Source: a virus (Duplodnaviria > Caudoviricetes). From it: a stretch of DNA of 37,644 bases. The translations under genes and the position numbers were made by a program. The notes below the pieces were generated by a model. That model had not been told where the DNA came from. It worked only from the letters and a program-made list of their open reading frames with translations, and ran no database searches. Location of the stretch: positions 1-37,644 of IMG/VR virus record IMGVR_UViG_3300037420_000101. One strand, written 5' to 3'. This document shows positions 9,488-32,961 of this stretch, one piece after another; the first letter of the stretch is position 1; each line of letters begins with the position of its first letter.

Positions 9488-9558
9488 GCCTTGCAAGTGT
9501 AACGATTGCACGACTGCCTCTAAAGCGGGAAGACGGGGTTCGACTCCCCGGCAAGGCA
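9488..9558 (+). tRNA. tRNA with CTA anticodon (amber suppressor / 'Pyl-like')
   Basis: Acceptor GCCTTGC/GCAAGGC, D stem GTGT/GCAC, loop CTCTAAA (anticodon 9520-9522), T arm CGGGG-TTCGACT-CCCCG. Confidence 0.85.
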
Positions 9559-10688: not shown

Positions 10689-10731
10689 CTAGCTAAACTA
10701 TTCCCACAGGATGGGACGAAAGGAGACAGAA

Positions 10732-12363
10732 ATGTCTGATGCACTAAAGAACTATGCTCGTACCAAGAAGGTCGAGCGCACAAACACTCCTCTGACAAAG
10801 AGGACTCCAGGCCGAACCGATGAAGTCGTAAACAACGCCGGTTCCTACGTCTTTGGCGTAGATGACCAGAACCGCCTTGAGCGATTCCTCATTCTCGGTA
10901 CTGATGGAGGAACTTACTACGTCGGTGAGCGTAAGCTTACTGAGCAGAATGTCAAGTTCCTCAAGGACATGATTGCTCGAAACGAGCAGGCTGTCCTTGC
11001 TACCGTAATTGCGGTTTCTGAGGGCGGTCGTGCACTCAAGAACAGCCCTGCGCTATTCGCTTTGGCTTTGATTCTCACCGAGGGTCAGAACAAGGCTGCT
11101 GCACGAGCGGCTGTTCCGCGAGTTGCACGTACCTCCACGGCTCTATTCGAGTTTGCCGAATACATCAAGAACCTTGGTGGATGGGGTCGGGCAAAGCGAG
11201 GAGCAATCGCGGATTGGTATGAGAACATGGACGCTGGTAAGCTCGCTTACCAGGCTGTGAAGTACCGTCAGCGTAACGGATGGACTCACCGAGACCTATT
11301 CCGTCTTGCTCACCCAAAGGGAGTTGACCAGACTGTTGGAAACTTCATTCTAGGCAAGGACGAGCTTGGTCCAGACGCGCCATACATCCTCCTTGGATTC
11401 AAGGAAATGCAGCGGGCAACTTCGGTTGCAAACGTCATTGACACCCTTGGAGAGTTCAAGAACCTACCTTGGGAGACAATCCCAACTCAGTTCCTCAAGG
11501 ACGAGAAGGTATGGAAGACCCTCTTCTACAACAACCAGCTTGAGGGACAGGCCCTTGTTCGTAGCATTACGCGGCTCGCCCGTATTGGTGCTTTCAAGGA
11601 CATGGTATTCACGGCTGACTACGCTGAGAGGCTTGCTGACCCAGCAAGGATTGAGAAGACACGTCTTCACCCAATCAACTTCCTCAACGCGCTGGTTGTT
11701 CACAACGAAGGCCAGATTGACCGTGAGAACACTTGGTACTACGGTGCCTTCAGCACGCACAACCGCAAGAAGGACTGGACGACTTCTGGAAAGATTGTGG
11801 ACGCTCTCAACGAGGGCTTCTACGAGGCTTTCAAGCACGTCGAGCCAGCCGGTAAGAGGACTCTGCTCGCGGTTGACGTTTCTGGCTCCATGGCCGGATT
11901 CGCTGCCAACGGTCTAGACCTTTCAGCGGCTCAGGTCGCGGCGGCTATGGGAATGAACCTGGCTCGTACTGAAAAGTACAGCGAGATTGTTGGGTTCGGT
12001 ACCAGCATTGTTGACCTTGGAATTACAGCCAAGACTAGCTTGGAAGACGCAATGCGAAAGGTTCAGCGTTCCTTCGGGAGCACGAACATTTCCGCTGCCA
12101 TCGACTACGCTATCAAGAACCGTATTGAGGTTGATACGTTCGCAATGATTACCGACAACGAGGCGAACACCGGTCGTAAGCCTACCCAGGCCTTGGCCGA
12201 CTATCGTCAGCGTATGGGTATCGATGCGAAGCTGGCAAGCTTCGGCGTAGCTGCTACCGAGTACACCGTGGCCGACCCTAAGGACGCGAACCAGATGGAT
12301 TTCGTTGGCTTCGACAGCAACGCGCCAAAGGTCTTCGCAGACTTCTCAGCCGGTCGTCTGTAA
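10732..12363 (+). CDS. rsr: Ro60/Rsr-like RNA-binding protein (TROVE + vWA domains)
   Basis: NNAG.YVF, RLERFLILGTDGGTYY, GWGR, KYRQRNGWTHRDL.RLAHP, MIDAS DVSGSM, ITDNE, VGFDS; AGGAG RBS. Confidence 0.95.
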   Translation: MSDALKNYARTKKVERTNTPLTKRTPGRTDEVVNNAGSYVFGVDDQNRLERFLILGTDGGTYYVGERKLTEQNVKFLKDMIARNEQAVLATVIAVSEGGRALKNSPALFALALILTEGQNKAAARAAVPRVARTSTALFEFAEYIKNLGGWGRAKRGAIADWYENMDAGKLAYQAVKYRQRNGWTHRDLFRLAHPKGVDQTVGNFILGKDELGPDAPYILLGFKEMQRATSVANVIDTLGEFKNLPWETIPTQFLKDEKVWKTLFYNNQLEGQALVRSITRLARIGAFKDMVFTADYAERLADPARIEKTRLHPINFLNALVVHNEGQIDRENTWYYGAFSTHNRKKDWTTSGKIVDALNEGFYEAFKHVEPAGKRTLLAVDVSGSMAGFAANGLDLSAAQVAAAMGMNLARTEKYSEIVGFGTSIVDLGITAKTSLEDAMRKVQRSFGSTNISAAIDYAIKNRIEVDTFAMITDNEANTGRKPTQALADYRQRMGIDAKLASFGVAATEYTVADPKDANQMDFVGFDSNAPKVFADFSAGRL

Positions 12364-13842: not shown

Positions 13843-14088
13843 ATGGACGCAGTTACAGATTTCGACGCACTGGTTACTATGGGTGTGTATAACTATGTGG
13901 GACCAGATGATAACGGAGAGCCACTGTACGTGCTGAATGTCAAGCAGGCGCTTGAACTTTGTCCTGAAATCTACTGGGCTCAGCGCAACCAAGTTGACCT
14001 AGCGATTCTCGACGCGATAACAGCCGGGGTTGTTGACTGGGATATCAACACAACTACACTAGAGGAAACACTGAATTTCAATGTCTAA
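13843..14088 (+). CDS. hypothetical protein
   Basis: GGAGG RBS, ORF. Confidence 0.65.
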   Translation: MDAVTDFDALVTMGVYNYVGPDDNGEPLYVLNVKQALELCPEIYWAQRNQVDLAILDAITAGVVDWDINTTTLEETLNFNV

Positions 14089-14653
14089 GTTTTTCTACGA
14101 CTGTGAATTCCATGAGGATGGAAAGACCATCGACCTTATCAGCATCGGTATCGTGAACTACGAGACCGGCGAAACTTTCTATGCGGTCTCCAACGAATTC
14201 GACACTTCCAGGGTAGCAACTCATTGGTGGCTTATGGAGAATGTCATGTCTTCCATTGACCATGAGTCGTACGCTGTTGTCGATGCCGAAGGATTTCCGG
14301 TCTACCGCGACTTCGACATCACGGACCAGGCAGCCATGAGCCGCGAGGAGATTAAGCGCGGGGTCTTGGAGTTTGTCGGCCAAGGACAACCAGCAGAACT
14401 ATGGGCATGGTACAGTGCCTACGACCATGTGTGTCTAGCTCAACTCTTTGGCAAGATGATTGACTTGCCGTCTGAGGTGCCTATGGTGACCTACGATATC
14501 AAGCAGCTACATAAACTAGCTGGATACTGTGACATGCCAAAGCAGCCCGAAGGCTTGCACAACGCCTTGGAGGATGCTAAGTTTAACATTGTTAGATACA
14601 ACTATCTCAAGGAGGTGCTTGATGGCAACAATTTGCGCAAGGCCGAACTGTAA
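14081..14653 (+). CDS. DEDDh 3'-5' exoribonuclease (RNase AS/Rv2179c-like)
   Basis: FFYDCEF, LISIGIV, LWAWYSAYDHV.L.QLFG.M..LP, HNALEDA. Confidence 0.88.
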   Translation: MSKFFYDCEFHEDGKTIDLISIGIVNYETGETFYAVSNEFDTSRVATHWWLMENVMSSIDHESYAVVDAEGFPVYRDFDITDQAAMSREEIKRGVLEFVGQGQPAELWAWYSAYDHVCLAQLFGKMIDLPSEVPMVTYDIKQLHKLAGYCDMPKQPEGLHNALEDAKFNIVRYNYLKEVLDGNNLRKAEL

Positions 14654-15479: not shown

Positions 15480-15551
15480 GGGGCTAAGGTGTCAAGGGTT
15501 GCATACTTCTTTTGCAAGGAATAGGATGGGGTTCGACTCCCCATAGCTCCA
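15480..15551 (+). tRNA. tRNA-Ala(TGC)
   Basis: GGGGCTA/TAGCTCC acceptor with G3.U70; loop TTTGCAA. Confidence 0.85.
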
Positions 15552-15621
15552 CCGCCGTACTTGAGAAAGTACGTTTACACCTTCACTAAATTGGGTAACA
15601 TGATAGTGGAGGTGTGTAATA

Positions 15622-20153: not shown

Positions 20154-20576
20154 GGGGTCGAAAGGTATCGATTCTGAAATAGAGAGTATGAACGCAGCCC
20201 GACTTCGTTGAGAGAGTCGTTAAACACTTGACAAACAATAAATGCAGCCGATAACATCGATGCAGAGTACGAGGCGCTTTGCGCTGAGTACAACCTTGCT
20301 TCTGTCTGAGCGATAGAACAAGGCGGGGCTTGCCGTGGAAGTCGCCCTGTTAGATAAGTGCTTCCACATTAGGTGCTGACAACCTTTAAAGGTCAGTGGT
20401 GGAAATCGAACAAGAAATTGTTCACCCCTACTGCTCGGCATCAGTTTAAACTGCTAGAGGTAGACGGACTTATCCTGGGACCACCTTCAATCGTAAAGGT
20501 CTAAAGAATAGGGATGGCTGTAATTCGGATGTACGATTGAAAGCAGAAGACGGGAGTTCGATTCTCCCCGACTCCA
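20154..20576 (+). ncRNA. ssrA: tmRNA
   Basis: 5' GGGGTCGAAAGGTATCGA; 3' GACGGGAGTTCGATTCTCCCCGACTCCA with G3.U70; ATAAAT-GCA resume site and tag ORF 20244-20309. Confidence 0.92.
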
Positions 20577-20594
20577 CAACTAGAGAGGAAGGGC

Positions 20595-22148: not shown

Positions 22149-22218
22149 GCTAAAGGTTGTGGGTTCAAATCCTGCCCCTTATGTAAAAGTTCGGGTAGCT
22201 CAATGGAAGAGCGTTAGC
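22149..22218 (+). ncRNA. circularly permuted tRNA-like RNA (open at anticodon)
   Basis: GCTAA/TTAGC stem; T arm GTGGG-TTCAAAT-CCTGC; CCC...GGG hairpin; D arm TAGCTCAATGGAAGAGC. Confidence 0.65.
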
Positions 22219-22221
22219 GAT

Positions 22222-22292
22222 AGCAAAGATGCGGGTTCGAATCCCGCCTGCTTCGGGAAACCGGGGTTGTAGCTTAATGGCAAAGCGTTGCT
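22222..22292 (+). ncRNA. circularly permuted tRNA-like RNA (open at anticodon)
   Basis: AGCAA/TTGCT stem; T arm GCGGG-TTCGAAT-CCCGC; GAAA-capped acceptor hairpin; D arm TAGCTTAATGGCAAAGC. Confidence 0.72.
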
Positions 22293-31396: not shown

Positions 31397-31717
31397 ATGG
31401 CAGATGACAAGAAGAAGGACTACGACTACTCCGGTCTTCTAGCTCCAGAGGAGCGTGGAAACAAGGTTGACGAGGAGGCCGCTGAGCGAGCCGCTGAGGC
31501 TGGTAAGGTAGCTCCAGAGTACGTTGACTACGAGGCCGCTCTTGAGAACTACGAGAGCCGTCCAGACGTTGAGACTCTAGAGCAGCGTCGTGCCCGTGAG
31601 AACGGAACCTCTTTCGCAGACGCAGCTTTCCGTCGTGAGGTTGGTCAGGCTCAGGAAGGTGGAGTCGTAACCTCAGACCAGGCAACTGGTGACGAGAAGA
31701 CGAACGACAAGAAGTGA
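31397..31717 (+). CDS. hypothetical acidic protein
   Basis: AAGGAGG RBS; strong codon bias. Confidence 0.7.
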   Translation: MADDKKKDYDYSGLLAPEERGNKVDEEAAERAAEAGKVAPEYVDYEAALENYESRPDVETLEQRRARENGTSFADAAFRREVGQAQEGGVVTSDQATGDEKTNDKK

Positions 31718-31734
31718 GTCTAGTCTTAGACTGT

Positions 31735-31768
31735 AAGAGAGGGGACTTGCAAAAGTCCCCTCTCTTTT
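31735..31768 (+). terminator. intrinsic terminator overlapping a -35 box
   Basis: AAGAGAGGGGACTT/AAGTCCCCTCTCTT + T run. Confidence 0.8.
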
Positions 31769-31776
31769 GCTACAAT
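31747..31776 (+). promoter_or_regulatory. promoter of the RNase P RNA / tRNA-Thr unit
   Basis: TTGCAA-N18-TACAAT; predicted +1 coincides with the P1 5' end. Confidence 0.65.
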
Positions 31777-31781
31777 AATCT

Positions 31782-32047
31782 TAACAAAGCATGATGCGAG
31801 CGCTGGGAAGCTAGACTTCCTAGAGGACAAGTTCGGGGCTCCCAGAATGAAAGCCATGTGGTACGGCCACTAAGCCTAGTTTAAGACGCAGGGTGAGGAC
31901 GGGAGCAACCTCAAGCAGACATCCGGTTTCATTCCCAATAGGATGTCGGGTAGAGGGCAGCGATGGAGGCAACAAAATCGCCGGGTTCGTAAGAGCCTGA
32001 GACAGATGCTTGCACTAGACAGAACCCCGGCTATTATTGCTTTGTTA
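31782..32047 (+). ncRNA. rnpB: RNase P RNA (compact, reduced S-domain)
   Basis: CR-I GAGGACAAGTTCGGGGCTCC, GGGAGCAA, L15 GGT, CR-IV AGACAGAT, CR-V ACAGAACCCCGGCTA; P1, P2, P3, P4, P5, P6, P15, P16, P18 pairings all present. Confidence 0.87.
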
Positions 32048-32048
32048 T

Positions 32049-32123
32049 GCCCGCTTGGCTCAATGGTAGAGCGCAATCTTGGTAAGATTGAGGTCGTGGG
32101 TCCGATTCCCACAGTGGGCTCCA
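32049..32123 (+). tRNA. tRNA-Thr(GGT)
   Basis: Cloverleaf; CAATC-TTGGTAA-GATTG; CCA. Confidence 0.92.
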
Positions 32124-32236
32124 AGTGTGTTAAGGTAACGCCTAATGGCACACTGGTGAGGGGTATTCCATATAACCCCCGGTGATGAAGGTTTCTAGGC
32201 CCTTCATCTCGCATTCTGTCCGTCAAGCAGAGTTTT

Positions 32237-32311
32237 GCCCGATTGGTTGTAGTGGTAACACATCTCCTTCGTAACGAGAATTCGCCAGTTCGATTCTGGC
32301 ATCGGGCTCCA
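32237..32311 (+). tRNA. tRNA-Thr(CGT)
   Basis: Cloverleaf; loop TTCGTAA; CCA. Confidence 0.88.
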
Positions 32312-32312
32312 C

Positions 32313-32339
32313 CCCGGCAATCAACATTGCCGGGTTTTT
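32313..32339 (+). terminator. intrinsic terminator
   Basis: CCCGGCAAT/ATTGCCGGG + TTTTT. Confidence 0.8.
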
Positions 32340-32364
32340 GTTTGCCAAACGGTCAAACAAACGC

Positions 32365-32435: not shown

Positions 32436-32681
32436 ATGTTGATTCTCGATTACTCCGCTGCACACAAGTTTATGCGTGAACAGCGTCATCTTGGCAATAA
32501 GGTTCGATGGGAAGGATGGGACATGGTTTTCTTCAAGCCGACCCATTATGGTTACAAGGATGTAAACGGAGCTTTCCGTGATGGACGCTGGGGTGTAGAA
32601 AAGCGCGTTCAGGTAAATGCGGATGGCAACTGGGAGGTTAGCAAGAAGGATGTCTTCACTGCTAGAAAGCCTCGGAATTGA
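32436..32681 (+). CDS. hypothetical protein
   Basis: AAAGGA RBS; WEGWD motif. Confidence 0.7.
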   Translation: MLILDYSAAHKFMREQRHLGNKVRWEGWDMVFFKPTHYGYKDVNGAFRDGRWGVEKRVQVNADGNWEVSKKDVFTARKPRN

Positions 32682-32961
32682 CCCGGAAGAGTTTGAATGG
32701 CACCACTTGGCTGCCTGTCAACATCTTAACCCGGAAATCTTCTGCGATAAATATGAATCAGACCAAGAAATCGCTAAGGCAGCGGATTCAGTCTGCCTCG
32801 GGTGTCCAGTCATCAGAGATTGCTTCTTTGCTGGAAGCCAGAATAACGAGTACGGTGTCTGGGGCGGCGTTTACTGGAATGGCTCCGGTAAACCAGATAA
32901 GAACAAGAATTCGCACAAGACCCAAGAAATCTGGGATGCAATTGAGAGGAAGGTAAGTTGA
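32650..32961 (+). CDS. whiB: WhiB-family transcription factor
   Basis: W...AAC, CLGCPVIRDC, YGVWGG. Confidence 0.9.
   Translation: MSSLLESLGIDPEEFEWHHLAACQHLNPEIFCDKYESDQEIAKAADSVCLGCPVIRDCFFAGSQNNEYGVWGGVYWNGSGKPDKNKNSHKTQEIWDAIERKVS

Follow-up and report, generated by a model that had tools for sequence, protein, structure and literature searches.

RNase P is regarded as a universal cellular enzyme. Its bacterial class A RNA (Rfam family RF00010; M1 RNA of Escherichia coli, encoded by rnpB) joins a catalytic domain to a specificity domain composed of the paired helices P7–P14 with the conserved regions (CR) II and III. In class A RNAs the GGU of the loop L15 pairs with the 3′ CCA of the tRNA, and the GCAA residues of the joining region J5/15 have an established role. 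Here we analyze a stretch of viral DNA, IMG/VR record IMGVR_UViG_3300037420_000101, whose whole length of 37,644 nt we call the window, and describe at 31782–32048 on its plus strand a miniature RNase P RNA gene of 267 nt. The element is an RNase P RNA homologue carried on a phage fragment, with the whole catalytic-domain architecture in place and the specificity domain nearly deleted.

RNase P RNAs with reduced specificity domains and RNase P-like RNAs of viruses have each been described before: the T-type (minimal) RNase P RNA of Thermoproteaceae was reportedly presented by Lai and colleagues in 2010, and a putative RNase P RNA of orthopoxviruses, said to come from Yang, Altman and colleagues around 2005, is reportedly inactive, of weak resemblance and from an animal virus without tRNA arrays. 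T-type RNA is active although nearly its whole specificity domain is gone, and the available sections of the P finder paper place it solely in that archaeal group (PMC7191817). The domain loss is common to T-type RNA and the window RNA, but T-type RNA is archaeal, works with archaeal proteins and is its cell’s only RNase P RNA, whereas the window RNA is an accessory phage gene whose best match within the Rfam clan is the bacterial class A model rather than a T-type one (two further, lower-scoring matches belong to the same clan). A catalytic domain without a specificity domain has also been engineered, as the Eco CP RPR described in the available portion of Mao et al. (2018; PMC5839562), which is a laboratory construct and not a natural gene. 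Phage ribozymes beside tRNA genes have a precedent in the theta (minimal hepatitis delta virus-like) ribozymes of gut phages, likewise with a proposed part in tRNA maturation; as far as the accessible text goes, these are small self-cleavers proposed to remove 3′ trailers, while 5′ maturation is assigned to cellular RNase P (PMC10879173), and the window RNA is a homologue of that trans-acting 5′ enzyme. The full-text literature searched, a coverage that leaves out most subscription journals, yielded no description of an RNase P RNA encoded by a phage or other virus: the available part of a 2024 RNase P review (PMC11143913) names no phage-encoded form, phages and viruses go unmentioned in the accessible sections of the P finder (PMC7191817) and Bcheck annotation papers, and a 2026 preprint about the tRNAs of phages mentions no phage RNase P RNA.

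A preliminary description of the sequence had read this element as a phage-encoded RNase P RNA, and homology bears it out. RF00010 matches 31784–32049 (+) from model position 1 to 367 with 58.5 bits (E 1.8e-17 in a search of 431 nt, E 1.6e-15 over the whole window), no RNase P match is reported by Rfam on the minus strand, and the RNA lies between genes that are syntenic in Streptomyces phages. The extent of the gene, 31782–32048, rests on this match, on the helices and on covariation in nine distinct RNAs of a family described below, to which all the counts of two-sided pair changes given here refer. The conserved blocks quoted in the preliminary description all lie where it had placed them, and its named helices hold as well: with the pairs written out and checked one by one by script, all 11 helices form with standard pairs alone, including the P4 and P6 pseudoknots.

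The molecule opens with the 5′ strand of P1 (31782–31791), which forms 10 bp with 32038–32047, every one of them changing on both sides in the family, followed by the 5′ strand of P2 (31796–31801; 6 bp with 32008–32013, 5/6 pairs changing on both sides) and by the P3 hairpin (31803–31823; 8 bp around the loop CUAGA, 6/8). The CR-I block GAGGACAAGTTCGGGGCTCCC occupies 31823–31843; CR-I and the 5′ strand of P4 fall within 31823–31838, where P4 is built from A31830, G31831, the bulged U31832 and U31833 to G31838. P4 pairs with 32025–32032 over 8 bp and carries the bulged U31832, and seven of its eight pairs are invariant in the nine distinct RNAs, the 3′ strand having been fixed by the search pattern used to find relatives and the 5′ strand having been free. 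P5 had been drawn with 6 bp; the helix does form, but G31838 is shared with P4, so that it is better given 5 bp, between 31839–31843 and 31901–31905 (4/5 pairs changing on both sides). The conserved block GGGAGCAA at 31901–31908 ends in the GCAA of J5/15 (31905–31908; CR-IV region), aligned to the GCAA of RF00010. P6 is an 8-bp pseudoknot, twice the 4 bp of P6 in E. coli RNase P RNA, formed by GAAUGAAA at 31845–31852 and UUUCAUUC at 31927–31934 in the P16 loop; when the two segments were shuffled, a perfect 8-bp complement appeared 50 times in 20,000 trials, and a tighter version of the test gave it 6 times in 5,000.

What stands in place of the specificity domain is a remnant of 48 nt (31853–31900), close to the 50 nt or so first estimated. 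It contains one small hairpin (31858–61/31867–70) and folds no better than shuffles (z +1.04); the 110 RF00010 model positions that make up the P10–P14 part of the domain are replaced by 15 nt, and a class A specificity domain, P7–P14 with CR-II and CR-III, is not present. Beyond the remnant, the catalytic domain continues with P15 (4 bp), an internal loop and P16 (7 bp) at 31909–31956, where 3/4 and 5/7 pairs change on both sides, respectively, and CGGGTA at 31947–31952 places G31949, G31950 and U31951 in alignment with the GGU of class A RNAs. Between P15 and P18 lies an extra hairpin (31960–31981; 5 bp between 31960–64 and 31977–81, 5/5 pairs changing on both sides), which is outside the class A consensus and was absent from the earlier helix list. 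P18 (31982–31999) has 7 bp, 6/7 of them changing on both sides, under a GNRA loop, GUAA. J18/2 with its sequence AGACAGAU, the 3′ strand of P2, J2/4 and CR-V with the 3′ strand of P4 then follow at 32000–32033, as placed by the RF00010 alignment and the helix check, with the block AGACAGAT at 32000–32007 and the block ACAGAACCCCGGCTA at 32019–32033.

Set beside class A RNA, the window RNA therefore has the same order and pairing of P1–P6, P15, P16 and P18 and shares CR-I, the J5/15 GCAA, the L15 GGU, J18/2, CR-V, the bulged U in P4 and the GNRA loop on P18. It differs in its length of 267 nt, in the absence of P10–P14 with CR-II and CR-III, in the extra hairpin before P18, in a P4 shifted by one G–C pair, in the CA inserted into J3/4 and in a gene that is phage-encoded and fused to a tRNA gene.

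The window RNA belongs to a family of miniatures. A 17-mer scan of metagenome contigs returned 50 loci; the 17-mer started one base too far 5′ and was unable to match the close relative described below. Of 14 of these loci run through Rfam, six gave full-length matches that span only 240–279 nt at 31–62 bits (L014, L017, L025, L036, L037, L059), and four are full-size RNAs at 164–279 bits (L019, L031, L049, L057). The CR-V 16-mer found 8 loci in viral contigs, where Rfam gave two weak full-length matches (L007, 32.6 bits; L011, 22.3 bits); two others, L009 and L010, were set aside as chance matches. Triage by regular expressions saw CR-I in 16 of 58 loci and overlooked L058, L041, L063 and L035, which a covariance model (R1), built from the window’s RNA alone with its nested structure and run on 64 sources, later found. 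R1 gave 34 matches at E ≤ 1, of which 23 short ones were dropped; the remaining 11 are full length (the window and 10 others; 241–356 nt, 38–67 bits) and were realigned as nine distinct sequences.

Covariation, which the preliminary description had proposed as a check, is present among these similar RNAs, as are compensations in a close relative. In the alignment of 11, 96.7% of cells pair, compared with 34–48% when partners are slid by 1–3 columns, and 44 of 72 pairs change on both sides, and on none of the five measures does any of 500 shuffles come up to the observed value. The fit of the alignment to a model of the window RNA’s own structure favors that structure, a circumstance to be set against these figures. 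P6 and the small hairpin of the specificity-domain remnant are gap columns in the other RNAs, and P6 was tested separately for this reason. Six of the eight other distinct RNAs have a Watson–Crick complement of their own, 5–6 bp long, in the same places and in four further sequences, and in L037 and L014 the P16 loop has no such complement to the bases that directly follow P5. P6 is thus found in seven of nine distinct RNAs in five different sequences, with a combined shuffle p of 1.4e-5 in which the pairs L036/L025 and L041/L035 are not independent. The window RNA shares the traits of the family, namely a catalytic domain with the extra hairpin before P18, a specificity domain replaced by a short variable insert, and a P4 of the type UCGGGG/CCCCGG, at about 60–72% shared letters with any member.

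Two other kinds of RNase P-like RNA came to light in viral contigs. L013:257–632 (+), on an IMG/VR contig of 299,875 bases classed as viral, is a full-size class A RNA (255.4 bits, above the curated cut-off) whose P4 is of the same variant. The other kind is a group of RNAs about 340 nt long and beside tRNA genes (L006, L008, L011, L012 and L050, on the minus strand of each), which occurs in viral contigs of up to 336 kb, is barely visible to Rfam (L011, 22.3 bits) and has CR-I, GCAACAA, ACGGGTTG and CR-V blocks in common; L006, L008 and L012 align with L011.

A close relative of the locus is present in environmental DNA. Four soil or rhizosphere DNA runs contain 24–35% of the stretch’s words, and no sequencing run on record as RNA holds it. 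Contigs of three of these runs (X1, X2, X4), aligned to the window, represent a relative that is about 88–90% alike, and a single 1,173-nt contig of X4 spans its upstream open reading frame (ORF), RNA and tRNA; a near-identical contig of 296 nt in run X1 possibly derives from the window’s source sample. In the relative, three of the five pairs of the extra hairpin are doubly compensated (C31961>T with G31980>A, A31963>G with T31978>C, T31964>A with A31977>T), P18 is longer by 2 nt on each strand with its loop changed from GUAA to GAAA, and six substitutions with one insertion alter the tip of P3, which, as read, remains a hairpin with a GAAA loop. Further listed changes fall in joining regions (31795, 32014–32017). 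No change is listed in P1, P2, P4, P5, P15, P16, CR-I, the J5/15 GCAA, the GGU, J18/2 or CR-V, although by the contig totals up to five substitutions in the aligned parts are unlisted; the flank at 31663–31781 has 14 listed substitutions (about 12%) and 11 indel letters. Nearly the whole specificity-domain remnant (31848–31895) is swapped for 68 other letters, and because it is replaced in the relative and folds like shuffles, we regard it as a variable linker and not as a small specificity domain. To judge from the covariation in the family and in this relative, the fold of the RNA is under selection.

The RNA appears to have its own transcription unit. A promoter upstream of P1 had been proposed, and at 31747–31776 (+), ending 6 nt before P1, lies a promoter-like site whose hexamers TTGCAA and TACAAT are 18 nt apart, the second of them preceded by TG; the region has two such sites against 1.2 expected, and transcription would start near P1. 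In the close relative the first hexamer and the TG are the same, the second hexamer is TATACT (near consensus), and 17 nt separate the two hexamers. Just upstream, a GCAA-capped hairpin with a T-run behind it (31735–31766, +), read from the sequence, is likely the terminator of the upstream gene; it received no call in the terminator scan, and it is supported by the relative, in which G31744>A is matched by C31757>T and the pair is kept. The TTGCAA hexamer lies inside the loop and 3′ arm of this hairpin, so that the termination and initiation signals overlap.

Downstream, the gene runs into tRNA-Thr(GGT) (32049–32123, +), which has an encoded CCA and starts 1 nt past P1. A 113-nt spacer (32124–32236) and tRNA-Thr(CGT) (32237–32311, +), also with an encoded CCA, come next, and the terminator scan places a terminator-like hairpin of 9 pairs with a T-run (32313–32344, +) 3′ of the latter. 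Framed by the promoter-like site and this terminator, the P RNA, tRNA-Thr(GGT), the spacer and tRNA-Thr(CGT) are likely one operon. Contigs of other runs break off or diverge in the spacer at 32123–32124, 32155 and 32234–32236, as if the slot held different inserts among related phages. The linker between P RNA and tRNA is 6 nt in the close relative, owing to a 5-nt insertion after 32047. Among the miniatures at large, five of 10 loci have tRNA genes within 480 nt (four of nine distinct, the L017 and L059 sequences being identical); in miniatures other than that of the window, the linker is 85–326 nt or no tRNA is within reach. A fusion like that of the window was seen in L119:463–800 (−), a 338-nt sub-threshold RNase P RNA (62.7 bits) on a 3,650-base contig with three tRNA genes, the first of which begins 1 nt after the RNase P RNA and is followed by the two others. 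This contig has been binned into a Pseudomonadota metagenome-assembled genome and is probably a phage fragment in a bacterial bin.

The IMG/VR record, classed as linear, is identical with the window in its 37,644 bases and has a completeness estimate of 29, or about 29% of a genome; its GC content is 0.48–0.53 along the full length. It contains 35 tRNA genes and one transfer-messenger RNA (tmRNA) gene, on the plus strand throughout. The 5.1-kb stretch that ends at the RNase P-like RNA matches 128 phage records at 60–90% identity, 127 of them Streptomyces phages, and its genes (rIIA-like, rIIB-like, a phosphoesterase and a hypothetical protein) share their order with the phage matches. Directly downstream of the tRNA-Thr unit lies a WhiB regulator (32617–32961; Pfam). 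Its gene content marks the window as a piece of an uncultured phage genome akin to those of the Stanwilliamsviridae, and the host is most likely an actinobacterium.

A blastn search for close relatives in 50,697 phage records gave eight matches, all confined to the tRNA; no syntenic loci were found in viral contigs by way of two upstream proteins, and a CR-I 20-mer had no match there. Across 185,579 species-representative genomes the CR-V 16-mer occurs in 119 places, against about 280 estimated by chance, and has the CR-I block upstream in one of them; R1 gave no full-length match in 100 of these loci, and Rfam, run on 20 (nine of them from Actinomycetota), saw P RNA in L119 only. Each of five Actinomycetota genomes has one ordinary rnpB of 334–395 nt (205–316 bits), with a P4 core of CCGG in four and CGGG in one, unlike the UCGGGG/CCCCGG of the window, and with a CR-I to CR-V spacing of 267–326 nt compared with 196 nt in the window RNA. 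Global identity is 0.60–0.72 for host rnpB and miniatures alike. The comparison indicates that the window RNA was not copied recently from a host gene of the sampled kinds, and its P4 type appears to group with the miniatures and some full-size RNAs; we do not claim that this P4 type is confined to mobile elements, because an exact 16-mer search misses one-letter variants. Two other readings of the locus were rejected. Had host rnpB been copied at a phage attachment site, the result would be a terminal fragment rather than an internally deleted RNA of full length, and the ORFs at 31876–32226 (−) and 31943–32185 (+), on which a protein-coding reading would depend, run through the tRNA gene.

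We think it reasonably likely, from these sequence comparisons, that 31782–32048 encodes a working ribozyme that trims the 5′ leaders of the phage’s own tRNAs. The promoter would yield a single precursor of the P RNA and the two tRNA-Thr genes. As the tRNA starts 1 nt past P1, an RNase P cut at 32048/32049, by the host or the phage enzyme, would form the 3′ end of the P RNA together with the 5′ end of the tRNA; this cleavage would most likely occur in trans because known RNase P structures suggest that a single nucleotide beyond P1 is too short a tether to bring the tRNA to the active site. The released RNA would join the host RnpA protein and recognize its substrates via the acceptor stem, the leader and CCA–GGU pairing, without a domain that reads the tRNA elbow, and its isolated catalytic domain would keep its shape by means of the long P6. 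A relaxed specificity for atypical tRNAs or tRNA mimics, as proposed in the preliminary description, may go with this. That such a molecule could work is plausible because, according to the available portion of Mao et al. (2018; PMC5839562), the catalytic domain of the E. coli RNA is able to cleave by itself, with an efficiency that likely depends on P6-like pairing, a dependence with which the lengthened P6 of the window RNA fits. The same text has P18 as dispensable for the lone E. coli catalytic domain (PMC5839562), and that P18 and its GNRA loop are kept and selected in the window RNA hints at another role for this helix.

Several observations weigh against a working ribozyme. Comparison with Rfam, another check that had been proposed, gives a significant end-to-end class A match that nevertheless falls below the curated cut-off, so that an Rfam scan at curated thresholds lists no RNase P (58.5 bits against a gathering cut-off of 100); the score is this low because the 110 specificity-domain model positions are missing. 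An RF00010 profile search of the window’s own record had no match at E ≤ 1, which we take to reflect the lower sensitivity of the initial pass of that search. The minimum-free-energy z-scores are weak (−1.88 on the plus strand, −1.25 on the minus strand). The highly conserved J3/4 has two extra nucleotides, CA, after GAGGA, which none of the eight other distinct miniatures shares. In the close relative, C31997>G gives, as read, a G–G mismatch near the base of P18, and U31928>G in the 3′ strand of P6 breaks a pair unless A31851, which lies in the replaced part, has changed as well. As a substrate, tRNA-Thr would be unusual, its leader being base-paired P1 up to position −2. No RnpA domain was found by Pfam among the 51 ORFs of the window, about 29% of a genome, which makes the protein partner a guess. 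Finally, the model has nothing better than 13.3 bits over 81 nt, which is no real match, in five named Stanwilliamsviridae genomes, and at the syntenic spot four of them have tRNA-Lys or gaps of 80–140 nt, with no room for the RNA; with all five lacking it and four lacking the room, the RNA is dispensable for Stanwilliamsviridae.

Some of these points would equally suit a catalytically dead decoy that binds host RnpA or, through GGU–CCA pairing, pre-tRNAs, and so diverts or slows host tRNA processing for the benefit of the phage. The CA insertion and the missing specificity domain could have ended catalysis, RnpA is absent from the window, and a binding decoy would also need a conserved and selected fold. 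A decoy for the protein alone, however, would not require all of the active-site blocks, and CR-I with its bulged U, the J5/15 GCAA, J18/2 and CR-V are without listed change in the relative; moreover, the phage’s 35 tRNAs and tmRNA themselves require RNase P. We consider a decoy unlikely.

Slightly less probable still is that the element acts only in cis, as a structured leader of the tRNA-Thr operon that is derived from RNase P and stabilizes, folds or times the release of the tRNA without any activity in trans. Its position at the head of a short operon and the 1-nt linker to tRNA-Thr, which recurs in L119, are what such a leader would look like, but the linker varies in length, from the 6 nt of the relative to the distances of 85–326 nt, or the lack of any tRNA within reach, in other miniatures, and a mere leader has no need of the conserved P4, P6 and GGU that are kept at about 60–70% shared letters.

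Very improbable, in our view, is a decaying pseudogene of a host-captured rnpB on its way to loss. The large internal deletion, the five named relatives without the RNA and the unstructured, freely replaced remnant of the specificity domain would all be expected of such a gene; the compensatory changes and paired insertions in the relative, a core without listed change next to a flank with about 12% substitutions, the promoter kept in the relative and a P4 type unlike that of the five Actinomycetota rnpB genes would not. Chance resemblance, or an assembly chimera with bacterial DNA, to which the sub-gathering Rfam score and the null profile search of the record might point, can be practically dismissed in view of the E-value over the whole window, the junctions of upstream ORF, RNA and tRNA on single contigs of the relative in three runs, and the genes syntenic with Streptomyces phages on both sides.

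Elsewhere, the fragment is rich in RNA-handling functions, comprising an exoribonuclease, a Ro60-type protein and a tmRNA besides the P RNA. The Ro60-type protein (550 aa; 10711–12363, +) is encoded amid the tRNA genes and has a TROVE domain (E 3.8e-35) and a Ro60 vWA domain (E 2.5e-45). Cellular Ro60 proteins bind Y RNAs with tRNA-like parts, for which reason a Y RNA partner may lie nearby, and the neighborhood of this gene may account for the tRNA mimics of which the preliminary description spoke. An Rv2179c-like 3′–5′ exoribonuclease domain is encoded at 14081–14653 (+; E 1.5e-14), and the tmRNA at 20154–20579 (+; 80.9 bits) has the tag peptide AADNIDAEYEALCAEYNLASV. Three tRNA-like matches on the plus strand are without an ARAGORN call: 15480–15554, whose part 15480–15551 scores 42.7 bits as a tRNA and 27.8 bits (E 1.3e-7) as a tmRNA; 9488–9558, a tRNA match of 44.6 bits; and 22195–22248, a partial tRNA match of 33.6 bits.

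Returning to a working ribozyme, we tentatively extend this explanation to the family, with somewhat less than even confidence in the whole: phages and mobile elements may have an RNase P ribozyme lineage of their own, natural, of bacterial type and consisting of the catalytic domain only, with a shifted P4 and an extra hairpin, of which the window’s member would be made as a pre-tRNA leader and, once RNase P cleavage had released it, would process the 35 tRNAs and the tmRNA by itself or together with the host protein. If this is true, tRNA 5′ maturation would be a function that viruses can bring along, and large phages with tRNA arrays could supply a processing enzyme besides the tRNAs themselves. 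Nature would also have made a bacterial-type enzyme that consists of the catalytic domain only, a form so far known from Thermoproteaceae and from test tubes, and the 267-nt RNA would offer a natural scaffold for probing the purpose of the specificity domain, P6 and P18.

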